Positions 6,052 to 17,619 of a stretch of 24,000 bases of DNA are shown in pieces (positions within the stretch are counted from its first letter, which is position 1; every line of letters begins with the position of its first letter). Source of the DNA: Wenzhouxiangella sp. AB-CW3 (lineage in GTDB: Bacteria > Pseudomonadota > Gammaproteobacteria > Xanthomonadales > Wenzhouxiangellaceae); the NCBI RefSeq assembly GCF_014725735.1, contig NZ_CP061368.1:363225-387224 (forward strand), read 5' to 3'. The position numbers and the translations under genes are program-made. Below the pieces are notes generated by a model. That model had not been told where the DNA came from. It did no database searches and saw only the letters and a list, made by a program, of their open reading frames with translations.

Positions 6052-7089
6052 ATGCCGATTCGATTCGATCGAAACAAACTCCGGGAAACCCGGCAGACTT
6101 CCTGGCTGATGCTGGACCTGTTCATGGTCGTACTGGTCAGCATCAACCTGGTTTTCATCGTCTTCGACACGCTCTATGGCACCGTGGCCATGCAGCAGTT
6201 GCTCGAAGGCTTCTCGCCCGCATTCAACGCGTTTTACGACGAGCGGGTGCATCAGCATTTTCTCTACTACGACCTGATATTCGTCGCCATCTTTCTGGCC
6301 GAATTCTGCTTTCAGTGGGTGATGTCAGTACGCAAGCGCATTTATCCGCGCTGGTATTTCTACCCTTTCATGCGCTGGTACGACCTGGTCGGTTGCATCC
6401 CCATCGGTTCGCTGAGAATGCTGCGGCTGTTACGGATCGTCTCGCTACTTGTGCGACTGCAGAAGATGGGCGTGATCGACATGACCGAGACGCGCATCTA
6501 TCGCTTCTTCGAGTTCTACTTCAATGCCTTTATCGACGAGGTTTCCGACCGGGTCATGATCCGCACTCTCGACGACGTCAGGCGCGAAGTCGAGGATGAA
6601 ACGCCGATTACCCGCAAGGTGATCACCGAGGTTATCGCCCCGCAGCGCGAGTTGCTGGTCGAGCACCTGTCGCGTCGAATCGGCCTGATCGCGCAGAACA
6701 GCTACCAGCAGCACCAGGACACGATACGGGAGTACGTCGACTCGGTTATTGGCGACGCGGTGCGCGCCAATGCCGGGATTCGCAATCTCGAGCGCGTACC
6801 CATGCTCGGGCGTGCCGTGGTCGGCCAGCTTCAGCAGTCGATCAACGACATCGTTTACGAGGTCTTCGACCGCACTGTTCGCGATGTCAGTGCCGCCGAG
6901 AACAACCGCCTGGTCGACGAAAGTGTCTCGGTCATCATCGATGCCATCCTCGACGACCACCCCGAGCTTGGCGATATCGGCACGAAGATGACAGTGGAGG
7001 CTATCGAGCTGATCAAGGAGCGCGTTCGTGTCCAGCACTGGAAGGATCAGTTGCGACGTCGACATGAGCGGGCGGAGGCCATGCCCTGA
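6052..7089 (+). CDS. Voltage-sensor-like (S1-S4) membrane protein with a soluble C-terminal domain and no pore module
   Basis: ATG 6052 lies in frame within track ORF 5974..7089. There are four hydrophobic helices. The fourth is an S4-type arginine ladder, [19 protein letters not shown]2 carries an acidic residue (FLAEFCF) and S3 carries WYDLVGCIP. The about 200 residues after S4 are hydrophilic, with no further TM segment or selectivity-filter motif. Confidence 0.75.
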
Positions 7090-7178
7090 TTGAAGCCCTG
7101 AATGCGATCTACATTCGTGCCGGGTTAATATCATGCAACTGCATTCGTAGATATCACACCCAAAAGAGGACCACTGGC

Positions 7179-8018
7179 ATGGCCAATCGTCGAGACCTGG
7201 AAGCAGGCATCGAAACCGACCTGAAAGACCGTCTGACCTACTCGGGCTACCTCGGGCTGGAACGCCTGCTCTCGGCCCAGCAGCCGCTGTCGAACCCGGC
7301 GCACCATGACGAGATGCTGTTCATCGTCCAGCACCAGACCTCGGAGTTGTGGATGAAGCTGCTGTTGCACGAGCTGGGTGCGGCAGTGAACCATGTTCGC
7401 TCCGACGAGCTTGAGCCCTGTTTCAAGATCCTTGCCCGCGTCAAGCAGATCCAGCGCCAGTTGTTCGAGCAATGGGCGGTACTGGAAACGCTCACGCCCT
7501 CGGAGTATGCCGAGTTTCGCGGCGTGCTCGGTGGAGCCTCGGGTTTTCAGTCGCCACAGTATCGGGCGCTGGAGTTTCTGCTGGGTAACAAGAATGCCGA
7601 CATGCTCAAGGTCTTCGACCACGAGCCTTCAGTTCATGCCTGGCTGAAGAACTATCTCGACCAGCCCAGCCTTTACGACGAGTTCCTGCGCTACCTTTCC
7701 CGTCGCGGTCTGCCGGTGCCTGCCGACAAGGTTGAACGCGACTGGGCTGAACCCTACGAGTCCGATCCGGGTGTCACCGAGGTGTTTCGCCAGGTCTACA
7801 CCGATCGCGAGGCGCACTGGGATGCCTACGAGATGGCCGAGAAGCTGATCGATATCGAGGAGGGCTTTCATCTCTGGCGCTTCCGCCACATGAAAACCGT
7901 CGAGCGCGTCATCGGCCACAAGCGCGGAACCGGCGGATCGTCCGGGGTGAGTTTTCTCAAGCGCGCGCTCGAATTGCAGTTCTTCCCGGAATTGATTGAC
8001 GTTCGCACAGAAATCTGA
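7179..8018 (+). CDS. kynA: Tryptophan 2,3-dioxygenase
   Basis: AAGAGGA lies 8 nt upstream. Motifs are typical of bacterial TDO: [65 protein letters not shown]...GTGGSSG. Confidence 0.92.
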
Positions 8019-8025
8019 TCACCTG

Positions 8026-8146
8026 TCGTCCCGGAATCGCCGCAGGCGATGTCCGGGACCCCGCACGCATTGGTTCTGTTTGGAGCTGTGCCATGGGCTA
8101 CCGTGCGAGGCCCCGGATATTGCCTGCGGCAATTCCGGGGCGACGG
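8026..8146. repeat. REP/BIME-like pair of inverted palindromic units between the convergent genes kynA and kmo
   Basis: Unit 1 (about 8026-8067) and unit 2 (about 8103-8146) are imperfect reverse complements of each other, roughly 85% by eye. Each contains its own 26-nt hairpin: CCGGAATCGCC-GCA-GGCGATGTCCGG (8031-8056) and CCGGATATTGCC-TGC-GGCAATTCCGG (8113-8138). Confidence 0.8.
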
Positions 8147-8199
8147 CACTTGTATTGTCCCTGCTCCCCGATCCCGTTAACCGTCTCTAGTCTCCTCGT

Positions 8200-8234
8200 T
8201 TACCTTCACCTTTCACCTTTCACCTTTCACTTAT
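8200..8234. repeat. Heptamer tandem array, + strand CACCTTT (mRNA sense AAAGGTG), 3 perfect plus degenerate flanking units
   Basis: Perfect units start at 8207, 8214 and 8221, with degenerate units at 8200 and 8228. The kmo stop codon (TGA, 8222-8220) lies inside the array. Confidence 0.9.
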
Positions 8235-9584
8235 TACTTTCCCCAACCTTTCCCGCACCAGTCGTTCGCCCTCATCCAGATCAACCTCCTCCAGGGAGCC
8301 GGCCTCCCGCGTCAGCTCATCGAGGATTCCGGCCTGTATGCGACCGCGCCGCTGGGCCTCGGCGTAGGGCAGGGTGCGGAACATGACCATGGCGTAGCGC
8401 GGTACATACAGCTCGGGCAGGCGGGTGTAGAGTTCGGCCTCGATCTGTTTTTGCAGCTGAAAGGTCGGGTCGGCGACCTTGTCGCGCATTTCGATGTAGT
8501 TCTCCAGCGCCATGTCGGCGATGGCATCGGCGTTGGGCTTGCGCCGCCTTTCGTATTCGGCCAGCAGGGTGGGCCAGTCGGCGACGTTCTTGTCGAGCAG
8601 GCGGTTGAGCTCGGTGCAGTCCTCGAAGGCGCAGTTCATGCCCTGGCCGTGGAAGGGCACCACGGCGTGGGCGGCATCGCCGACCAGGGCGATGTGGTCG
8701 TGGTGCCAGGGTTGGCAGCGGACCGTGCCCAGAGGGCTGACCGGGTGCTCGGCGTGCTGGCGGGCGAAGTCCTCGCCGACCAGGTCCATGAAATCGGGAA
8801 ATTCCTGTTGGAAGAATGCCTCGGCGGCGTCGGCATCGGCAATGGCGGCAAACGAGCGTTCGTCTCCCTCGTGGGTCAGAAACAGGGTGGCGGTAAAGCT
8901 GCCGTCGGGATTGGGCAGGGCAATCAGCATGAACTCGTGGCGCGGCCAGATGTGCAGGGCATCGGGCGCGAGCCGGTGTGCGCCGTCGGCATCCGGTGGA
9001 ATATTGAATTCCTGGTAGCCGTGGGGCAGCCAGTCGATGGTGGTGTCGGTGTTCGCGCCCGATTCCAGCGCCTGGCGCACGACCGAGCCGGCACCATCAC
9101 AGCCCAACAGGGGGGAGCCGGTCAGGTCGATGGCCGCTCGCCCGGCCGGCTGCAACAAGGCGTTGGCCGGGTCCAGCGATTCGATTGGGCTGTCGAAGTG
9201 AAAGCGCGCACCGGCGGCTTCGGCCGCGTCGATCAGGATCTGGTTGAGTTCGCCGCGATGGACCGAGTGGATGACCTCGTCGGCATGGGTCGAGTAGGGT
9301 TGCAGAGACTGATTGCCGTCGCGGTCGTGGATCATGCGCCCGCGCATCGGCAGTGCCATGTTCATTACCTCGTCGAGCACGCCGATCTCGCGCAGGGCCA
9401 CGATGCCGCGTTCGGACAGCGCCAGGTTGATCGAGCGCCCGCGCTCGACGGCCTGCCGCCGCATGTCGGCGCGCTTTTCGAATACCTCCACGGCCAGTCC
9501 CCGCCGCGCCAGGTAGCAGGCCAGCACACACCCGGCCAGCCCGGCCCCGGCGATGTGGATGGGTTGTTGTTGGTCGATGGTCAT
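8220..9584 (-). CDS. kmo: Kynurenine 3-monooxygenase (FAD-dependent)
   Basis: FAD fingerprint IHIAGAGLAGCVLACYL. Also GRSINLALSERG, PMRGRMIH and GDAAHAVVPFHGQGMNCAFED, as in characterised KMOs. It is adjacent to kynU. Confidence 0.9.
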   Translation of the reverse strand: MTIDQQQPIHIAGAGLAGCVLACYLARRGLAVEVFEKRADMRRQAVERGRSINLALSERGIVALREIGVLDEVMNMALPMRGRMIHDRDGNQSLQPYSTHADEVIHSVHRGELNQILIDAAEAAGARFHFDSPIESLDPANALLQPAGRAAIDLTGSPLLGCDGAGSVVRQALESGANTDTTIDWLPHGYQEFNIPPDADGAHRLAPDALHIWPRHEFMLIALPNPDGSFTATLFLTHEGDERSFAAIADADAAEAFFQQEFPDFMDLVGEDFARQHAEHPVSPLGTVRCQPWHHDHIALVGDAAHAVVPFHGQGMNCAFEDCTELNRLLDKNVADWPTLLAEYERRRKPNADAIADMALENYIEMRDKVADPTFQLQKQIEAELYTRLPELYVPRYAMVMFRTLPYAEAQRRGRIQAGILDELTREAGSLEEVDLDEGERLVRERLGKVISER

Positions 9585-9623
9585 GTGTTTATACCGACTC
9601 CTGATTCATGCGGTACTTGATCT

Positions 9624-9757
9624 GGAAAGAGGGGTAGAGGGGGAGAGGAGGAGAGGGAAAGCCGACAAGAATGACAGGTCGCCACCTCCAAGCAAGTTCC
9701 TCTGACCCTCTCTTCTTCTACTCCTCTAATCCTCTATTCCTCTACCCGTCTTCCCTC
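9624..9757. repeat. Polypurine tract (9624-9661) and polypyrimidine tract (9698-9757), partly complementary; the latter carries TCCTCTA x3 with 8-nt period
   Basis: 9624-9661 GGAAAGAGGGGTAGAGGGGGAGAGGAGGAGAGGGAAAG has 37 of 38 purines. The 9698-9757 tract is CT-rich, with TCCTCTA starting at 9723, 9731 and 9739. 9624-9640 pairs with 9739-9755 at 15 of 17 positions. Confidence 0.85.
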
Positions 9758-9772
9758 ACACATCCGCCAGCC

Positions 9773-11071
9773 TCACAAGCTGTCCATCAGCGCCCTGACC
9801 AGTCGCAGGCAATCATCGTAACGGCTATACATCGGCACTGGCGCGACGCGGATCACGTCGGGTTCGCGCCAGTCGCCGACGATGCCCTGGCCTGTCAGGT
9901 ACTCGAAGACCTCGCGCCCGGAGTGTTCGGGATGAGTGATGCGCAGCGAGAGCTGGCAGCCGCGTCGGGCCGGGTCGGCGGGGGTGATGATCTGGACGTG
10001 TTCGGCCAGCAAACGCCGGACCATGGCTTCGAGGAACCCGGTCATCTTCTCCGATTTCTCACGCAGGGCGTCCATGCCGGCCTCGGCAAACATTTCGGTG
10101 GCCACGCGCACCGGGGTCAGGGCCAGGATGGGCGGGTTGCTGAGCTGCCAGGCATCGGCACCAGGGGTGGCATGAAACTCCGGCCCCATGCGAAAGCGCG
10201 ACCCGGCATCGTGGCCCCACCAGCCGGCAAAGCGCGGGAGTTTTCTCAAGTCGGTGACCCGGCCATGGCGTTCATGCACGAAACAGCCGGCCACGGCTCC
10301 AGGCCCGGAATTGCAGTACTTGTAGTGGCACCAGGCGGCGAAGTCACAATCCCATTCATGCAGTCTCAGGGGTACGTTGCCGGCGGCGTGGGCCAGATCC
10401 CAGCCGATGGGGACACCATGGCGGCGGGCAGTTGCGGTAATGCCGGCGATATCGAACAACTGCCCGGTGCGGTACTGAACGCCCGGCAGCAGCACCAGGG
10501 CCAGCTCGCCGGCATGGGCCTCGATGGCCTCGATGACGCGCCGGTCATCAAGCAGGCCGGAGTCGGGATCGGGGGCGAGCTCGATCAGATCGTGTTCGGG
10601 ATCGCCACCGTGAAAGATGACCTGCGACCAGGTGGCATGGCGGTCGGAAGGAAAGGCCCCAGCCTCGATCAGAATCTTTCGGCGCACGCCTTCGGGGCGA
10701 TAGAAGCTCACCATCATCAGGTGCAGGTTGACGGTAAGACTGTTCATGGCCACGACTTCGTGCGGCTTCGCGCCGACCAGGCGGGCCAGCGGCTCGCGCA
10801 GGAACTCATGCGCCGGCATCCACGGATGCGGTCCCGCGAAATGCCCCTCGACGGCCTGCTCGGCCCACATGTTCAGGTCGGCCTCCAGCGCGGCACGAGT
10901 CGCTTTTGGCTGCAACCCCAGCGAGTTGCCGCAAAAGTAGGCCTGCTCGCCGCCACGGTCGTCGCGCGGAATATGAAATCGCTCGCGCCATCCGCCCAGC
11001 GGATCGGCCTGGTCGAGTTCGCGCGCCAATACGGCGGCTTGTTCCAGGTTGGTGAATTCGGGTGTGTTCAT
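9773..11071 (-). CDS. kynU: Kynureninase (PLP-dependent)
   Basis: The track ORF extends to 11188. I place the start at ATG 11071 (MNTPEFTNLEQA...). Motifs: FCGNSLGLQPK, the PLP-lysine region WCHYKYCNSGPGA, and WGHD...RF. Confidence 0.9.
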   Translation of the reverse strand: MNTPEFTNLEQAAVLARELDQADPLGGWRERFHIPRDDRGGEQAYFCGNSLGLQPKATRAALEADLNMWAEQAVEGHFAGPHPWMPAHEFLREPLARLVGAKPHEVVAMNSLTVNLHLMMVSFYRPEGVRRKILIEAGAFPSDRHATWSQVIFHGGDPEHDLIELAPDPDSGLLDDRRVIEAIEAHAGELALVLLPGVQYRTGQLFDIAGITATARRHGVPIGWDLAHAAGNVPLRLHEWDCDFAAWCHYKYCNSGPGAVAGCFVHERHGRVTDLRKLPRFAGWWGHDAGSRFRMGPEFHATPGADAWQLSNPPILALTPVRVATEMFAEAGMDALREKSEKMTGFLEAMVRRLLAEHVQIITPADPARRGCQLSLRITHPEHSGREVFEYLTGQGIVGDWREPDVIRVAPVPMYSRYDDCLRLVRALMDSL

Positions 11072-11176
11072 GGATACCGGATGGATCGGGAATAGGAATG
11101 GACCGGACAAGATTAACGCAGAGCGGGGCGTGGAACGCGGTCGTGTCTCAGGATTGATATTCGTGGTGGCTTCGAG

Positions 11177-11255
11177 GCCAGCCTCCATTGGGAGGATTCG
11201 CTTCAGTTCGATGCGGTGGCAAGGCCCTCAGCGAATCCTCCCAATGGAGGCTGGC
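11177..11255. repeat. Perfect 26-bp inverted repeat (stem-loop / cruciform), 27-nt loop
   Basis: GCCAGCCTCCATTGGGAGGATTCGCT (11177-11202) is the exact reverse complement of 11230-11255. Each arm carries a sub-palindrome, CCTCC-ATT-GGGAGG. It lies 106 nt upstream of the kynU ATG. Confidence 0.95.
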
Positions 11256-11347
11256 ATGCCCTGCGGGGGAGGCGAAGAGGCGAAAGGTGAAAGGCAGAGA
11301 TCCGTCCGGCACCCGGAAACGGATTCTGAGCGTCAGCTTCATGATTT

Positions 11348-11448
11348 CCCTGAACCCTGAACCCTGAACCCTGAACCCTGAACCCTGAACCCTGAACCCT
11401 GAACCCTGAACCCTGAACCCTGAACCCTGAACCCTGAACCCTGAACCC
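11348..11448. repeat. Perfect heptamer tandem array, + strand (CCCTGAA)x14 plus CCC; mRNA/minus strand (TTCAGGG)n
   Basis: I counted units starting at 11348 + 7n for n = 0..13, with no substitution, followed by a partial CCC. The array lies between the stop of the cyclase-family gene (11461) and kynU. Confidence 0.97.
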
Positions 11449-11460
11449 GTAAAGCGTCCC

Positions 11461-12309
11461 TTACCCCTCCTCCCAGAGGTTCTTCGGGCAGGCGAGCGGA
11501 AACACCACCGGCCGACTCGGCACCGCATCCGTACACCAGTCCGGCAACTGCAGGTTCAGCAGGTACAGCCCGTCGGGCACCTCGTCGGGTACAAAAACGA
11601 ACTCGGTGACCGTGCGTTCGGCCACGGTCTCTTGCGTCGGCTGGCGGTCTTCGTTCAGGGCCCAGAAGCGGCGATGGGCCGGCAGACTGCCGTCATCCTG
11701 GCCTCGGTCGATGGACGGAGTGTCGACCAGCAGGTGTTCGACGCCGCGATGCAGCAGCCAGTCGATGGCTTCCAGGGTGAAATAGGGATGCGGATTGTCG
11801 CCCTGGTATTGTCGCTGCCGCTTGCCCGGATCGTTGGGCCGGGTGCGAACGATCAGCGCCGGGGTGTCGATATCGGCAGCGGATAGGTCGGCACGGCTGA
11901 TGACCTTCTCATTGGCCTGGCCCGGCGGAGGATAGGTCTCGCCGGTCTGCTTGCAGACGTGGGTCATCACGCTGACCACGCGCGCGGCCATCCAGGCCGG
12001 CGGGCAGGGTGGTTCGGTGAAGGCATGGCTGAGGTGGGCAATGCTTTCGGTGTGGGTGCCGTGGCAGTGGGGAGTGAGCTCCAGACGCTCGACATTGCAC
12101 GACCCGCCGCGCGCGGTATCGCCGACGAAGTTACCGGCTTCCAACGCCTGGGCACTGGCCGGTTCAACGCCGTAGAAAGAGGGTTGGCTTCCGGCAAAAT
12201 CCAGCGGCAGGGCCAGGCTGATGCCGGTATTCCCATCAGCCTGGTAGCGTTGTCCCCGGTGTTCGAACCACAGCTTCAAGCGAATTGATCCCGCTCGAGC
12301 CCCAGCCAC
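11461..12309 (-). CDS. Cyclase-family protein, putative kynurenine formamidase (divergent KynB)
   Basis: Putative-cyclase family layout: metal motif HCHGTHTESIAH (canonical H.GTH.D.P.H), then LIVRTRP, then EAIDWLLHRGVEHLLVDTPSIDR, then AHRRFW. Its position between ACMSD and kynU supports the role. The start is uncertain: GTG 12309 overlaps ACMSD by 34 nt, while TTG 12279 would give a TTGA start/stop overlap. Confidence 0.7.
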   Translation of the reverse strand: MAGARAGSIRLKLWFEHRGQRYQADGNTGISLALPLDFAGSQPSFYGVEPASAQALEAGNFVGDTARGGSCNVERLELTPHCHGTHTESIAHLSHAFTEPPCPPAWMAARVVSVMTHVCKQTGETYPPPGQANEKVISRADLSAADIDTPALIVRTRPNDPGKRQRQYQGDNPHPYFTLEAIDWLLHRGVEHLLVDTPSIDRGQDDGSLPAHRRFWALNEDRQPTQETVAERTVTEFVFVPDEVPDGLYLLNLQLPDWCTDAVPSRPVVFPLACPKNLWEEG

Positions 12310-13304
12310 TCCAGCGCCGTGCCGTGATAGAGCCGTTCACGCGTGGGCTCGTCCAGGTCGAGACTGTCGATGCCGCTGCCGGGCTGCTGTTCGCCCAGCG
12401 GGAAGGGGTAGTCCGTGCCCATGGCGATGCGCTCCGGGCCCATCAGCTCGAGCAGGTATTCCAGTGCCTTCTGGTCATGCACGCAGGAGTCGAGGTAGAA
12501 GCGGTCGAGGTAGTCGCGCGGGCCACCGTTGGGATTGTCCACCGCGACCAGGTCCGGGCGCATGCGCCAGCCGTGCTCGATACGGCCGATGGTGAACGGG
12601 AAGCTGCCACCACCATGGGCGAACAGGACTCGCATGTTCGGGTGACGGTCGAACACGCCGCCGAAGATCATCGAGCAGATCGCGCGCGACTGCTCGGCCG
12701 GCATGCCCACCAGCCACGGTAGCCAGTACTTGTTCATCGATTCCTTGCCCATCATGTCCCAGGGATGCACCAGGACGGCCGCGCCCAGGTCGCTGGCCGC
12801 GGCAAATACAGGCTCTAGCTCGGGGTCATTCAGGTTCCAGCTGTTGATGTGCGAGCCGATCTGTACGCCCCTGAGGCCCAGCTCCTTGACACAACGTTCC
12901 AGCTCGCGTGCGGCCAGTTCCGGTGCCTGCAGCGGCAGGGTGGCCAGGCCGGCCAGGTGACGCGGATGTTCGCGGCACTGCTCGGCCAGGTGGTCGTTGA
13001 GATACTGGCCCAGGTAAAGCGCGTGCTCGGGATCGGCGTGGTAGCTGAACATCACCGGCACGGTGCAGGCGACCTGCACCTGCACGCCCTTGGCGCCGTA
13101 GTCGGCAATGCGTTGCTCGATATCCCAGCTCAGGGGATCAACCGCCCGGAAGAACTTGCCGTCCTTATGAATCTCGGCCTTGCTATCGTCCCGGCCGGTG
13201 TCGTGGTGAATGGTCGGGAAGCCGGTGGTGTTGAACTTCTCGTTCAGATCCGGCCACTCGCGCGGCAGGATGTGGGAGTGCATGTCGATTTTGAGCATAT
13301 TCAT
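12276..13304 (-). CDS. 2-amino-3-carboxymuconate-6-semialdehyde decarboxylase (ACMSD, amidohydrolase-2 family)
   Basis: The track ORF extends to 13454. I place the start at ATG 13304 ([14 protein letters not shown]), which overlaps the upstream stop as ATGA. Motifs: [37 protein letters not shown]. Confidence 0.88.
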
Positions 13305-13813
13305 TTCTCCGGATGCAGATGCCCACACTGCGGACAGGTGCGATTCTCCTCGCTGCTGAAGAAGCGTTCGAACACCGGCGGGAAATCCTTTTCGATGTTC
13401 TTCAGCTCGAAGTATTCCTCGTAAACGCAAGCATTGCATTCCGGGCAGAACCACATCAGGCCGTCCTTCTCTTCCGGCAGGCGTTTGCGTTCGATGACCA
13501 GGCCGACGGTATCGGCGAACCGCTGCGGCGAATGCGGCACTTTCGGCGGCAGCAGGAAGATCTCGCCCTCGCGGATGGTGATGTCCTTCGGCTGGCCGTT
13601 CTCGATGACCTTGAGCAGCATGTCGCCCTCGACCTGATAAAAGAATTCCGGGCCTTCGTCGTAATGGTAGTCAGTGCGCTCGTTCGGTCCGCCCACCACC
13701 ATGACGATGAAGTCCTCGTCGGACCAGATCATCTTGTTGCCCACCGGGGGTTTCAGCAGGTGGCGGTTGTCCTCGATCCATTGCTTGAAGTCGATTGGCA
13801 TGCTTGGCAACAT
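13301..13813 (-). CDS. nbaC: 3-hydroxyanthranilate 3,4-dioxygenase
   Basis: Cupin core [18 protein letters not shown] ... [12 protein letters not shown], plus C-terminal CPECNAC ... CPQCGH (a rubredoxin-like site known in bacterial HAO). The track start is ATG 13828. ATG 13813 ([13 protein letters not shown]...) has GAGG 6 nt upstream. Confidence 0.9.
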
Positions 13814-13817
13814 GGTG

Positions 13818-13843
13818 GACCTCTTCATCTTGGTGAAGAGGTC
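13818..13843 (-). promoter_or_regulatory. 10-bp perfect hairpin covering the Shine-Dalgarno / alternative start of the 3-hydroxyanthranilate dioxygenase gene
   Basis: GACCTCTTCA (13818-13827), loop TCTTGG, TGAAGAGGTC (13834-13843). On the mRNA the 3' arm contains the GAGG that serves ATG 13813. ATG 13828 sits at the stem/loop border. Any function is inferred only. Confidence 0.4.
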
Positions 13844-13864
13844 AGTGTAAAGTGTGAAGTGTAA
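13844..13864. repeat. Heptamer array AGTGTRA x3, the inverted counterpart of the 13956-14004 array
   Basis: AGTGTAA AGTGTGA AGTGTAA. The reverse complement of 13844-13866 matches the CTTCACACTTCACACTTCACACT register of the downstream array at about 21 of 23 positions. Confidence 0.85.
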
Positions 13865-13955
13865 AGAACAAAGAGGTGGGTGCAGGCCCCTGACGCTTTT
13901 CCCCTTCCGTAAGCCCGACAGAATCCAGCCTACTCAAGCCCCAGCCGCAAGCCGT

Positions 13956-14004
13956 ACTTCACACTTCACACTTCACACTTCACACTTCACACTTCAAATT
14001 CACT
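13956..14004. repeat. Heptamer tandem array, + strand ACTTCAC (mRNA sense GTGAAGT), 5 perfect plus 2 degenerate units
   Basis: Perfect units start at 13956, 13963, 13970, 13977 and 13984, followed by ACTTCAA (13991) and ATTCACT (13998). The RidA stop codon (14002-14000) lies in the last unit. Confidence 0.95.
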
Positions 14005-14425
14005 CGTCCCCCAAATAAGCAACACACTTCAACTCGACTGCAATCGGCGTGGGCAGTGCCCCGACCTCCACCGTGGTGCGGCAGGGGCGGTGGTCGGTGA
14101 AGTGTTCGGCGTAGATACGGTTGAAGGTGGCGAAGTCGCGTTTCATGTCGGTCAGGAACACGGTCACGTCGACCAGGTCTTCCCAGCGCGCACCCGAGGC
14201 TTCGAGAATGGCGCGGACGTTGCGAAACACCGAGCGAGTCTGATCGGCGACATCGTAGGCGATCACTTCTCCTTCCTCGTTCAGCGTCACGCCGGGAATG
14301 TCTTTTCCCTTCGGCGCACGGGGTCCGACGCCGGACAGAAACAGGAACGGCCCGGCGCGTCGTGAATGCGGGTAGGCGCCGACGGGGGGTGGGGCGTTTT
14401 CGGTGCTGTGCTCTTGGTTGCTCAT
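14000..14425 (-). CDS. RidA/YjgF-family deaminase, putative 2-aminomuconate deaminase
   Basis: 141 aa with RidA-family features (GVGPR..., VTVFLTDM.DF..FN..Y, RPCRTTVEVGALP...VELKCVA). It lies between the semialdehyde dehydrogenase and HAO, as in known aminomuconate pathways. The specific substrate is an inference from context. Confidence 0.75.
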   Translation of the reverse strand: MSNQEHSTENAPPPVGAYPHSRRAGPFLFLSGVGPRAPKGKDIPGVTLNEEGEVIAYDVADQTRSVFRNVRAILEASGARWEDLVDVTVFLTDMKRDFATFNRIYAEHFTDHRPCRTTVEVGALPTPIAVELKCVAYLGDE

Positions 14426-14457
14426 GGTGTCATTTTCTGTTGATTGCTCTTTAGGGT

Positions 14458-14492
14458 GAAGGGGAAGACGTGAGACGGAAGATGGAAGGCGG
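14458..14492. repeat. Purine-rich heptamer array (RAGAYGG-like x5), the inverted counterpart of 14523-14578
   Basis: GAAGGGG AAGACGT GAGACGG AAGATGG AAGGCGG. The reverse complement CCATCTTCCGTCTCACGTCTTCC matches 14537-14559 (CCATCTTACGTCTCCCGTCTTCC) at 21 of 23 positions. Confidence 0.85.
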
Positions 14493-14519
14493 TAAAAAAG
14501 GGCACTTATCCCATCACGG

Positions 14520-16019
14520 TCACCGTCTTACGTCTCCCATCTTACGTCTCCCGTCTTCCGTCTCCCGTCTCCCGTCATCGCCAATCGCCACGCACACATT
14601 CTTCGGCTCGGTAAAAAACCGCATCGCCTCGAAGCCGCCTTCCTTGCCCAGGCCGGAGGCCTTGTGGCCGCCGAAGGGGGTTCTCAGGTCGCGTTTCATC
14701 CAGCAGTTGATCCAGATGATGCCGGCCTCCAGGCGCGCGGCCATGCGGTGAGCGCGGTCGATGTCGCGGGTCCAGACCGACGCGGCCAGGCCGTAGTCGA
14801 CGCCGTTGGCGATCGCCAGCGCTTCTTCTTCGTCGATGAAGGGGATCAATGTGGCCACCGGGCCGAACACCTCGGCCTGGTTGATGTCGGCTTCCGGTCC
14901 CAGGCCATCGATCAGGGTCGGTTCGATGAACCAGCCGTCGTCGCAGCGCCCGCCCGGTCGGCCGGGCTTTCCGCCGACCAGAACCTGTCCGCCGGCCTCG
15001 CGAGCCTGCTCGATATGGCCCATGACCTTGTCGAACTGGACCTTCGAAACCACCGCGCCCTGGTCGGTGCCGGTCTCCAGTGGATCGCCGACGACCAGCT
15101 TGCCGGTGCGCTCGATGAGCTTGTCGCGGAAAGTCTTGTAGATGTCTTCCTGCACCAGGATGCGCGAGCCGCAAAGGCAGATCTGGCCCTGGTTGGAAAA
15201 CGCCGCTCGCACGACTTCATCGGCCGTGGCGTCGAGATCGACATCGTCGAACACGACCGTCGGGTTCTTGCCGCCCATTTCCAGCGCCAGCTTGACGAAG
15301 CGCGGCGAGAGTTCGGCGGCCAGCATCCCTCCGACTCGGGTCGAGCCGGTGAAGGTCAGCGCCTTGAGCGCGCGGTGGGATGACAGCGCCCTGCCGGCGC
15401 TGTCGCCGGAACCGTGCACGATGTTGAGCACGCCGGCCGGAAAGCCGATTTCTTCGGCAATGCGCGCCAGCATCCAGGCACTGGCAGGCGTGACCTCGGA
15501 AGGCTTGGCCACCACCGTGTTGCCGGCGGCCAGTGCCGGCGCGATCTTCCAGCTCATCAGATAAAGCGGCAGGTTCCACGGCGAGATGGCGCCGACCACG
15601 CCCAGCGGTTGGCGCAGGGTGTAGTTGAAGCCGGACGGCCCCATGTCGTGCGCTTCGCTGAAGAACTGGCTGGCCGAGGCGGCGAAGAAGCGCAGGTTGC
15701 TGACCACCCGCGGGATATCGACTGAGGCGGCGAGCGCCAGCGGTTTGCCGGTATCGATGCTCTCGGCGCGGGCTAGCTCGTCGGCATGACGCTCGACGGC
15801 ATCGGCCAGCCGGTTGAGCCAGTGCGCACGCTCATCGGGCAGCAGCGCCGACCAGTCGCCGAAGGCACTTTCGGCAGCCGCCATGGCCTGGCCGATATCG
15901 TACTGGCCGGATTCTGCGACGGTCGCGTATTCCGCCCCGGTGGCCGGCTCGAATACCGGCAGAGTCTTGCCGGTTTGGGCCGGGGCAAACTCGCCGCCGA
16001 TGTAGTTCTCGACGCGCAT
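14520..16019 (-). CDS. NAD-dependent aldehyde dehydrogenase, putative 2-aminomuconate-6-semialdehyde dehydrogenase
   Basis: ALDH catalytic motifs LEMGGKNP and GQICLCGSR, plus NAD-binding FTGSTRVG. The ATG at 16019 abuts the SDR stop (16022-16020). Substrate is assigned from operon context. The last about 19 codons are repeat-encoded (see findings). Confidence 0.88.
   Translation of the reverse strand: MRVENYIGGEFAPAQTGKTLPVFEPATGAEYATVAESGQYDIGQAMAAAESAFGDWSALLPDERAHWLNRLADAVERHADELARAESIDTGKPLALAASVDIPRVVSNLRFFAASASQFFSEAHDMGPSGFNYTLRQPLGVVGAISPWNLPLYLMSWKIAPALAAGNTVVAKPSEVTPASAWMLARIAEEIGFPAGVLNIVHGSGDSAGRALSSHRALKALTFTGSTRVGGMLAAELSPRFVKLALEMGGKNPTVVFDDVDLDATADEVVRAAFSNQGQICLCGSRILVQEDIYKTFRDKLIERTGKLVVGDPLETGTDQGAVVSKVQFDKVMGHIEQAREAGGQVLVGGKPGRPGGRCDDGWFIEPTLIDGLGPEADINQAEVFGPVATLIPFIDEEEALAIANGVDYGLAASVWTRDIDRAHRMAARLEAGIIWINCWMKRDLRTPFGGHKASGLGKEGGFEAMRFFTEPKNVCVAIGDDGRRETEDGRRKMGDVRR
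14523..14578. repeat. Heptamer tandem array, + strand CCGTCTY-like x8 (mRNA sense GAGACGG), encoding the C-terminal tail of the aldehyde dehydrogenase
   Basis: Units: CCGTCTT ACGTCTC CCATCTT ACGTCTC CCGTCTT CCGTCTC CCGTCTC CCGTCAT. The whole array lies inside the 3' end of ORF 14520..16019. Confidence 0.92.
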
Positions 16020-16796
16020 CTACAGACTGCCGAGCCGGCCGCCGTCGACCGGCAGGTTGATTCCGGTGATGTAGCCGGCCAGCGGTGAGCACAAGAATGC
16101 GATGGCCGCGGCAGTCTCTTCCGGCTTGCAGAAGCGGCCCAGCGGCACGCCGGCAAGCATGGTCTTCTGTACCTGGTCTTCGCTGGTGTCCTGCGACTTC
16201 GCCTTGCCGGCCACCAGGCTGTCCAGACGCGGCGTCTCGGTAAAGCCGGGCAGGACGTTGTTGACCGTGATGCCGTCGGGGCCCAGTTCACGCGACAGCG
16301 TCTTGGCCCAGGCCGCCACCGCGCCGCGAACTGTATTGGACACGCCCAGCCCGGGAATCGGTTCTTTCACCGAGGTCGAAATGATGTTGACGATACGCCC
16401 GTAGCCGGCTTCGCGCATGCCCGGCACCAGCGCCTGGGCCAGGCGTTGACCGGCGATGAGATGCTGGTGAAAACCGACTTCGAACTCGTCCGGGTGGGCA
16501 TCGATGGCCCGCCCGGCTGGTGGTCCGCCGGAGTTGTGAATCAGAATGTGGTAGTGCCTGTCGCTCAGGTTCTCCAGACCGTCGGCTAGTGCCGCGGGGT
16601 CTCCGAGGTCCAGCGCAAGAAGATCGTGCCCGTCGCCCGGCAGAGTCTGATGGACGGCAGCAAGACGCTCCTTGTTGCGCGACAGCAAGGTGACTGTGGC
16701 GCCGCAGTCTGCAAGAGTCGAGGCGGTCGCTGCACCGATACCCTGACTGGCTCCGCAGATCAGGGCTCGTCGGCCCGATAGATCCAGGTTCAACAT
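16020..16796 (-). CDS. Short-chain dehydrogenase/reductase family protein with a non-canonical active site
   Basis: Rossmann motif ALICGASQGIGAA, then NSGGP and IVNIISTS. At the position where YxxxK is expected the sequence reads S-N-T-V-R (GVSNTVRGAVAAWAK). It is the first gene of the minus-strand operon. Confidence 0.8.
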   Translation of the reverse strand: MLNLDLSGRRALICGASQGIGAATASTLADCGATVTLLSRNKERLAAVHQTLPGDGHDLLALDLGDPAALADGLENLSDRHYHILIHNSGGPPAGRAIDAHPDEFEVGFHQHLIAGQRLAQALVPGMREAGYGRIVNIISTSVKEPIPGLGVSNTVRGAVAAWAKTLSRELGPDGITVNNVLPGFTETPRLDSLVAGKAKSQDTSEDQVQKTMLAGVPLGRFCKPEETAAAIAFLCSPLAGYITGINLPVDGGRLGSL

Positions 16797-17087
16797 GGTG
16801 TTTGGATGACTTGTGAATATGACAGGAATTCGAGGTTATCACAGCTCAGAAAGGACCTGAATCGGGCTGGCCCTGGTTTTTCCTCCCGCGTACCTTGGCT
16901 CAGATTTCGGGGTGTCCGACACGCTTGTGGAGGCAAACTGTGATGTGCCTTTCCGTTTGGCCCCAGGTGATCTGCGCCTTCACATTCGATAGCTTTCATG
17001 TAGATAGACTGCCGCCTCGATTGGGACGCCTCGACGTCCTGAATTCTGCTGACCTGAAGAGTTGGCGCAGCCATTGAGGAGGTAAGA

Positions 17088-17465
17088 ATGGAAATCATCA
17101 AGTTCGGTAATGACAATATCGAGAACACACTGGCCAAGATGAAAGACAGTGAACTCGACGATCTCGCTTTCGGTGCCATTCAGTTGGACGCCGCCGGAAC
17201 GATTCTTCAGTACAACGCTGCCGAGGGAGACATCACCGGGCGTGATCCAAAAGCCGTGATCGGCAAGAACTTCTTCAGGGATGTAGCGCCATGTACGGAC
17301 TCCAGAGAGTTTCGCGGCAGGTTTGAAGACGGTGTCAAGGATGGCAACCTGAACTCCATGTTCGAGTATGTCTTCGATTACGAAATGCAGCCGACCAAGG
17401 TCAAGGTCCACATGAAGACCAGCCTGTCAGGTGACAGCTACTGGGTGTTCGTCAAGCGAGTCTGA
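17088..17465 (+). CDS. pyp: Photoactive yellow protein (PAS-fold blue-light photoreceptor)
   Basis: 125 aa, colinear with Halorhodospira halophila PYP as I remember it (..[79 protein letters not shown]). Tyr42, Glu46, Thr50, Arg52 and the chromophore Cys69 (TGT 17292-17294) are all present. A strong GAGGAGG lies upstream. Confidence 0.97.
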
Positions 17466-17619
17466 TGTTCTATGCAGTCAAGCCGTGACCGCATTAATAA
17501 CCAGCAACGCTGGTCTCAATAGTCATGGTCGCTGCCTTTTGGGAGATCATTGGCGCTGAACTCAGAGAGCAGAACTGCTGCCAGTGATTGCTTCAACTGC
17601 CTGTCATAAGGGGTGATAC

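Follow-up and report, generated by a model that had tools for sequence, protein, structure and literature searches.

A perfect TTCAGGG array past a stop codon in the tryptophan-catabolism operon of Wenzhouxiangella sp. AB-CW3: a probable young member of a class of G-rich intercistronic heptamer repeats

In the haloalkaliphilic bacterium Wenzhouxiangella sp. AB-CW3 the genes of tryptophan catabolism form an operon in which an uninterrupted array of the heptanucleotide TTCAGGG lies between a kynurenine-formamidase-like gene and kynU. The stretch analysed, hereafter the window, comprises 24,000 nucleotides of the chromosome (NZ_CP061368.1, positions 363,225 to 387,224 of the forward strand), and coordinates are those of the window unless chromosomal or contig positions are indicated. 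Upstream of the array, on the – strand, is a kynB-like gene of the Cyclase family (PF04199; 11461–12279; 272 aa, with the longest open reading frame (ORF) extending to 12309), homologues of which are named arylformamidase or kynurenine formamidase by JGI. Downstream are kynU, encoding kynureninase (9773–11071, – strand; 432 aa; Pfam KYNU_C), and kmo, encoding kynurenine 3-monooxygenase (8220–9584, – strand; 454 aa; Pfam FAD_binding_3); in the published AB-CW3 gene table the three genes correspond to abcw3|00466 (374685–375503), abcw3|00465 (372997–374295) and abcw3|00464, respectively. Pfam matches further identify on the – strand an ACMSD-like amidohydrolase, 3-hydroxyanthranilate dioxygenase (3-HAO), a RidA-like deaminase, an aldehyde dehydrogenase (ALDH) and a short-chain dehydrogenase/reductase, and tryptophan 2,3-dioxygenase is encoded on the + strand.

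The array occupies positions 11348–11448 and is described by Tandem Repeats Finder (TRF), in agreement with direct reading of the sequence, as a repeat of period 7 with 14.4 copies, 100% matches and 0% indels, the + strand unit being CCCTGAA. Read on the – strand it is GGG(TTCAGGG)14, which corresponds to 15 G3 tracts, each split from the next by a 4-nt TTCA loop; the original prediction, made from the letters of the sequence, had the 14 uninterrupted units right and was one short in counting 14 G3 tracts. The array begins 12 nt past the stop codon of the cyclase gene (TAA, 11461–11463), from which it is separated by a linker (11449–11460, – strand), and ends 276 nt short of the kynU ATG, within a spacer of 389 bp (11072–11460) for which the published gene table gives the same gap (374296–374684); the coordinates of the table differ from those of the window by a constant 363,224. 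Because the flanking genes of the operon are all on the – strand, the G-rich strand of the array is the sense, non-template strand. Thus, TRF, direct reading, Pfam and the AB-CW3 gene table bear out what had been proposed on the perfection of the array, its strand, the length of the spacer and the identity of the genes. The array lies inside the circular chromosome CP061368 (3.84 Mb), at about 374.6 kb and about 374 kb from dnaA. Since dnaA is at position 1 of CP061368 and the GC skew is positive in the window, transcription of the operon runs head-on to replication, and the leading strand is copied from the G-rich strand. An ORF of 126 aa running across the array (11148–11528, – strand) was rejected as coding, as it has no Pfam match and no gene identifier intervenes between abcw3|00465 and abcw3|00466 in the AB-CW3 table, so that nothing seems to be annotated there.

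Two Logan contigs assembled from Illumina reads only (SRR12473497) are practically identical to the window. One of them (L238) contains the cyclase gene with its exact product, stops 28 nt into the TTCAGGG array and has its other end inside a second array of the operon, with unit GAAGTGT; it therefore supports independently both the junction and the presence of at least 3.6 units, and the possibility, raised with the original prediction, that independent sequencing would find no array did not materialize. The other (L001) covers kmo and is 99.98% identical. Since these contigs are interrupted at the arrays they give no copy number, and the figure of 14 comes from the genome assembly alone (nanopore plus Illumina). 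Exact-product look-ups matched the 272-aa start of the cyclase and KMO, and gave no match for kynU, 3-HAO and the 282-aa cyclase ORF. Long-read assemblies are prone to errors in perfect repeats, and many low-GC metagenome contigs mix TTCAGGG with TTTAGGG, as expected of eukaryotic telomeres, both of which could be taken to favour an assembly artefact or the entry of foreign, telomeric DNA. Such an origin is nevertheless extremely unlikely, given that the contig built from Illumina reads extends up to this junction and into the array, that the flanks are collinear with those of bacterial relatives and that the array is far inside a circular chromosome. A eukaryotic telomere origin was rejected on this context, that is, an internal position between two bacterial genes of a circular chromosome.

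The array is not a special or singular telomere-like device of the cyclase–kynU junction: further heptamer arrays lie at other junctions of the operon. All operon junctions carry a heptamer or octamer array, and most of them are built in the order stop codon, purine-rich array, loop, complementary pyrimidine-rich array and next start codon. At the ALDH/RidA junction (14426–14576, – strand; TRF, inverted-repeat search and fold) about 7.7 copies of GACGGGA/GACGTAA overlap the 3' end of the ALDH gene and are accompanied by complementary CCTTCCATCTTCCGTCTCACGTCTTCC. At the RidA/3-HAO junction (13829–13999, – strand; TRF and inverted-repeat search) about six copies of GAAGTGT lie right past the RidA-like stop codon and are followed by a loop and by complementary CTTTACACTTCACACTTTACAC ahead of the next start, the junction RNA having a minimum free energy of –72.1 kcal/mol (z = –4.8). 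At the kynU/kmo junction (9585–9772, – strand; TRF and fold) 8-mers, (TAGAGGAA)n, precede complementary CCCTCTCCTCCTCTCCCCCTCTACCCCTCT, and the z-score of the whole spacer is only –1.0. Finally, (AGGTGAA)3.7 (8205–8230, – strand; TRF) overlaps the kmo stop codon (TGA, 8220–8222) and extends 3' of it. In general, the sense strand of all five post-stop arrays of the window is rich in purines and poor in C, and the arrays begin at or right past a stop codon; G3 tracts occur in just two of the five array units of the operon. The window holds four to seven heptamer arrays of differing units and a single TTCAGGG array; seven is the only over-represented long period, with four strong arrays in the window and four in a relative sharing 89% identity (L002), while loci from other taxa, about 1 Mb in all, were almost free of period-7 arrays.

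Long stop-to-start RNA hairpins are predicted at the three junctions endowed with a complementary arm, and the TTCAGGG array is the exception in the operon, having no complementary partner in its own spacer. An intercistronic hairpin or processing module, in which the array would pair with a downstream pyrimidine-rich sequence and thereby bring the kynB stop codon close to the kynU start or form a barrier to RNases and exonucleases, is suggested by the folding of those three neighbouring junctions, by the stop-to-start hairpins that GGGTTCA forms in a viral contig (L233, see below) and by a C-rich tract 53 nt downstream of the array. The tract (CCTTTCACCTTTCGCCTCTTCGCCTCCCCC; 11265–11294, – strand), which is pyrimidine-rich in the mRNA and is the counterpart of a CCTCTCC arm of the relatives, is however not complementary to TTCAGGG and would match AGGTGAA-type units instead. 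Moreover, neither CCCTGA nor TGAACC occurs in the 276 nt downstream of the array, and the pairings predicted for the array are scattered and long-range, so that such a module is very unlikely at this junction.

The closest genomes are metagenome-assembled genomes (MAGs) of Wenzhouxiangella. Four relatives were compared at the kynB–kynU junction: L002, L063 and L026, with 84–91% protein identity, and L003, with 77%. The TTCAGGG array is absent at this junction from all four. L003 has compact junctions throughout, and its kynU overlaps the cyclase gene (ATGA). In the other three, two hairpins resembling repetitive extragenic palindromic (REP) elements lie between a patch at the stop codon (GGGAGAGGGGGATTGAGGG; GGGGAGAGG arm) and a CCTCTCC...CCCCC patch. 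A comparable G-rich patch (GGGAGGAGGGGTAAGGG; 11458–11474, – strand; alignment) covers the last cyclase codons and the stop codon in the window. Within the relatives' spacers only the last ~60 nt ahead of the kynU ATG are conserved. By contrast with the TTCAGGG array, the sister arrays are common to L002 and the window, among them the GAAGTGT element and the position of the AGGTGAA array, and differ in copy number. The glnA-upstream locus of Wenzhouxiangellaceae contigs displays the same array turnover. The heptamer-array family therefore turns over fast, with the TTCAGGG array as its youngest member, a status which fits the perfect identity of its units. The recent origin proposed earlier is likewise supported by the absence of the array from every related genome found; a second strain of the species was not found in a search of 5.8 billion proteins, in which the top cyclase match was 91% identical. 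At the kynU–kmo junction of L002 (11300–11420) there is another heptamer, CACGAAG with complementary CTTCGTG, the stop-to-start architecture being kept and the unit replaced.

The ability of the array to form G-quadruplexes (G4) was evaluated by motif counting and by folding models. The canonical G3+N1–7 rule picks out three non-overlapping motifs within the array and a single further one in the rest of the 24 kb, the background in dinucleotide shuffles being 1.3 ± 1.1 on both strands, and the motif count thus agrees with the claim that the array fulfils the four-tract rule three times over. In ViennaRNA the isolated array RNA goes from –13.6 kcal/mol without the G4 term to –32.3 kcal/mol with it, with three G4s, and at least one RNA G4 is predicted in 91–100% of the ensemble in every context tested, with a probability of about 1.0 in the nascent transcript and of 0.92–0.97 in the full spacer. 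In the latter, canonical pairing competes and the G4 contribution is only about 1.5–4 kcal/mol. DNA of sequence (GGGTTYA)3GGG melts at 64 ± 1 °C in KCl and at 55 °C in NaCl (PMC3082875); Na+ is pertinent here, as AB-CW3 grows at 2 M Na+. On the strength of the model and of this analogous DNA, G4 folding of the array in vitro is very likely.

This DNA is that of the Plasmodium telomere, GGGTT(T/C)A, one of whose two units, GGGTTCA, is identical to the heptamer of the array, and oligonucleotides of it fold into G4s (PMC3082875); the telomere likeness is therefore closer than had been noted. The array is, however, internal to a bacterial operon on a circular chromosome, where there is neither a telomerase nor a chromosome end, and is homogeneous rather than T/C-degenerate, and the resemblance is one of sequence and folding chemistry only.

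RNA or non-template DNA G4s in the array might tune the read-through, the stability of the mRNA or the translation of kynU and kmo relative to the upstream genes, with the copy number acting as a rheostat. Besides the three canonical motifs, the gain in stability of the array on its own, the G4 probabilities of 0.92–1.0 and the melting of the DNA oligonucleotides, the lack of a complementary arm that would compete for pairing and a 2.5- to 7-fold difference in abundance between the proteins encoded on the two sides of the array are in favour of such a regulator. It is nonetheless unlikely. The array is not conserved, being absent in all relatives found, and the sister arrays in equivalent places are mostly devoid of G3 tracts (GAAGTGT, AGGTGAA, TAGAGGAA), meaning that G4 formation is not their common denominator; in addition, canonical pairing within the full spacer leaves the G4s their small contribution, the proteins encoded downstream are not reduced, and the authors who described the known class of such repeats identified no regulatory role (PMC4692102).

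The abundance difference comes from the published AB-CW3 proteomes (PMC7691419), where in the staph, peptone and casein conditions KynU, detected in all three, amounts to 0.0117, 0.0117 and 0.0098, KMO to 0.0133, 0.0113 and 0.0065 and the cyclase to 0.0047, 0.0015 and 0.0024, respectively. KynU and KMO thus exceed the upstream cyclase about 2.5- to 7-fold; the spacer therefore does not silence the downstream genes, and the array imposes no strong polarity. These levels argue against a strong blockage of read-through by the array, modulation being a separate matter. Proteins of genes on either side of the array are detected, which could be due to a polycistronic transcript or to an internal promoter; a scan of positions 7000–17500 revealed no sigma-70-like promoter, and no terminator was found in the cyclase–kynU spacer.

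The closest known counterparts of the array are the G4-forming heptameric simple sequence repeats (SSRs) reported in Xanthomonas (GGGAATC) and in Nostoc (GGGGA(C/T)T) by Rehm et al. (2015, PLoS One; PMC4692102). These repeats comprise 2 to 26 units, with a modal size of 4 and a longest perfect array of 14 in the Xanthomonas genome Xcc. Between 89 and 93% of them are intergenic, the mean distance being 28 nt to the ORF upstream and 160 nt to the ORF downstream, and members of the class lie at most 50 bp past stop codons, between co-oriented genes; 70 of 186 repeats form convergent (inverted) pairs. Their lengths differ between Xcc and Xac, the two genomes having 83% of the repeats in common, and they are transcribed and found beside ordinary metabolic genes (PMC4692102). 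The TTCAGGG array shares with them the 7-nt unit made of a G3 tract and a 4-nt loop, the intergenic position between co-oriented genes (12 nt past a stop and 276 nt before a start, both on the – strand) and the metabolic neighbours, and the operon as a whole shares the variation of length and sequence between related species and the arrangement of neighbouring arrays in inverted pairs. The differences are a loop of TTCA rather than AATC, the lack of an inverted partner (pairing is not obligatory in the class), the occurrence of several unrelated units per operon instead of one dominant genome-wide unit, a host, Wenzhouxiangella, that NCBI puts in the Chromatiales, and the fact that the orthologous site of relatives holds another G-rich patch and not the same repeat, in contrast to the 83% shared between Xcc and Xac. 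Judged from its sequence, the array agrees with the class in all testable features of position and structure except pairing.

In the light of these data, the array is probably a young heptanucleotide microsatellite, generated by slippage and belonging to the class of G-rich heptameric SSRs located just past stop codons. The 7-nt register would have been seeded by a small G-rich patch located at the stop codon of kynB, and slippage during replication would have extended it, in the lineage of AB-CW3, to 14 identical units within a spacer that had presumably already opened between the two cistrons in this clade. Because the array, unlike its neighbours, has no complementary arm, its transcript or the displaced non-template DNA strand could fold into up to three G-quadruplexes. 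Any effect on kynU and kmo, which might come about through wider spacing, uncoupled translation, blockage by a structured RNA or the promotion of R-loops, would then be a modest by-product varying with the length of the array and not a conserved regulatory switch.

Four points weigh against this explanation. Fourteen uninterrupted units are the extreme of a class whose modal size is 4, and maintenance by selection is possible. Slippage alone leaves unexplained the recurrence of TTCAGGG at unlinked loci and in other genomes, namely ahead of glnA in a soda-lake contig (L092) and at several junctions of one viral contig. The G4 fold, dominant in the predicted ensemble, makes a functional effect possible, and the excess of KynU and KMO over the cyclase could reflect an internal promoter or a stabilizing spacer structure and not neutrality. 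Rather than a neutral by-product, the heptamer modules could represent a general, evolvable intercistronic device, consisting of a G-rich array past the stop codon and usually of a complementary C-rich array before the next start, of which the kynB–kynU array would be a partner-less, G4-folding variant that uncouples the expression of kynU and kmo from the upstream genes in a copy-number-dependent manner; this we regard as distinctly unlikely. Junctions of this kind are seen in soda-lake Wenzhouxiangella, in Xanthomonas and, with GGGTTCA, in a high-GC phage, and they could serve re-initiation by keeping a stop codon close to the following start, or cover the C-rich tracts on which Rho is loaded.

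The recurrence of units bears on yet another explanation, according to which the heptamers would be iterated mRNA sites for a protein or the ribosome (a factor of the S1, Csp or CsrA type) or DNA sites of a regulator recognizing heptameric direct repeats. A few units are indeed met again at loci that are not linked and in more than one genome: the window shares TTCAGGG with L092 and with phage contigs and GGGAGAC with L243, and GAAGTGT is present at two loci of L002. The same idea has been put forward for the TAACTGA repeats of Beggiatoaceae and cyanobacteria (PMC4679880). On the other hand, so many units within one operon would require as many factors, close relatives have different units at one and the same junction, and no candidate binding protein was identified, which makes iterated binding sites highly improbable. 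The TAACTGA repeats are intergenic heptamers found mostly a few nucleotides upstream of start codons (MacGregor, 2015; PMC4679880). Together with the cyanobacterial short tandemly repeated repetitive (STRR) sequences they resemble the array in having tandem 7-nt units near ORF boundaries, a variable copy number and a suspected post-transcriptional role (PMC4679880), and they differ in unit, in not being based on G tracts and in belonging to other host lineages.

A further parallel is offered by phase-variable SSRs such as the 7-nt repeats upstream of the Haemophilus influenzae hmw adhesin genes (PMC12721329), which are tandem heptamers in a transcribed non-coding region, where copy number could scale downstream expression. 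They lie in a promoter or 5'-untranslated region of surface-protein genes and their switching is demonstrated, whereas the array of AB-CW3 is between genes of amino-acid catabolism. The marks of a contingency locus are not seen here, as the array is outside ORFs, the promoter scan of 7000–17500 was negative and the neighbours are enzymes of tryptophan catabolism. REP elements and bacterial interspersed mosaic elements (BIMEs) share the intercistronic niche, and REP-like hairpins occupy the kynB–kynU junction in the relatives; these are, however, imperfect palindromes of about 20–40 nt, whereas the array consists of units repeated directly in tandem, is not palindromic in character and pairs only weakly with itself (–13.6 kcal/mol for 117 nt).

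As a known class, G-rich heptamer repeats beside stop codons date from 2015 and heptamer STRRs from earlier, and for neither has a function been demonstrated. New for the class are a unit identical to a Plasmodium telomere variant, a new host lineage, that of Wenzhouxiangella, and the coexistence in a single operon of several unrelated units that follow one stop-to-start architecture. The last point suggests that what the arrays share is their position and their period, and not G4 chemistry. As AB-CW3 is a cultured strain with a closed genome and published proteomes, the operon, with one G4-only and three hairpin junctions, is a compact natural test bed for the effects of repeats on operon stoichiometry. 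If the repeats do not affect stoichiometry the value of the case is mainly cautionary, in that regulation cannot be concluded from a perfect G4 motif lying in a bacterial spacer.

The TTCAGGG/GGGTTCA unit is also found in other DNA. At least 120 stretches with (CCCTGAA)4 occur in metagenome contigs and, among the matches listed, the high-GC contigs look bacterial or viral. Many short low-GC contigs among the matches listed (L064–L183; for example L085, L142 and L159) mix TTTAGGG with TTCAGGG and are probably eukaryotic and telomere-like. For the arrays of (TTCAGGG)≥3 in high-GC contigs (n = 44 among the matches listed), an ORF boundary lies within 40 nt of the 5' end of the G strand in 30 of 44 and of the 3' end in 12 of 44; among those 30 arrays the boundary is a same-strand stop in 10 and an opposite-strand start in 22, both being present in 2. 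The positional bias of the class thus holds for this unit in other high-GC contigs too. In one high-GC viral contig (L233, 1–4400, and L218; IMGVR_UViG_3300037692_000252), (GGGTTCA)n-loop-(TGAACCC)n hairpins are present at several consecutive junctions, each ending in CCCTCCC directly before an ATG, and form a dispersed family of the exact GGGTTCA unit. In the Kulunda soda-lake contig L092 (1–262), glnA is preceded at a distance of about 157 nt by at least 14.6 units of CCCTGAA; the contig is Wenzhouxiangellaceae-like by its GlnA, which is 83–85% identical to named Wenzhouxiangella proteins. In L239–L243 (2265–2505), with GlnA 94–95% identical, there is either no array upstream of glnA or a GGGAGAC array right past the upstream stop codon.

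Further heptamer arrays were noted as well. They flank kynU in a Lysobacterales MAG and in a Lysobacteraceae MAG (L004, 11332–11457; L017, 9903–9942) and are present in the kynU loci of two Flavobacterium genomes (L038, L042). A 58-kb high-GC metagenome contig (L094, 1150–4880; Ga0307374_10000822) has seven heptamer arrays of six units in 5 kb, including (AGGGTTC)x20 and (CCACTGA)x22. In the window, the C-terminal tail of ALDH (..DDGRRETEDGRRKMGDVRR*) is encoded by the GACGGGA heptamer array (14520–14576), while the protein ends in ..GGRRET* in L002 (6620–6700) and in ..ALAPK* in L003 (7100–7170); the ALDH protein has therefore been lengthened by repeat expansion.

Two other elements are present in the cyclase–kynU spacer. 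The first is the stretch of about 60 nt just 5' of the kynU ATG (11072–11130, – strand), which by alignment is conserved in the 89–91% relatives, the remaining spacer being unrelated; it has no obvious Shine-Dalgarno sequence or sigma-70 promoter, and may be a regulator site or a leader. The second is a perfect 26-bp inverted repeat (11177–11202 and 11230–11255; the whole element 11177–11255, unstranded), identified by repeat search, which has a 27-nt loop and no U-tail and forms the dominant stem of the spacer fold. Each of its arms holds a CCTCC/GGAGG motif. A search of the whole window against Rfam 15 gave no match at the gathering score and, at E ≤ 1, two sub-threshold matches to miRNA hairpins, both on this inverted repeat. 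Contig L001 begins at 11210, within the loop of the repeat, without an evident reason in the assembly graph; an inversion of the loop as the cause of this break was rejected, as there is no complementarity between the two loop ends. On the far side of kmo, REP-like hairpins (GTCCCGGA...TCCGGGAC) form an inverted pair 3' of the gene (8025–8144), and they are also present in L002 (9780–9900).

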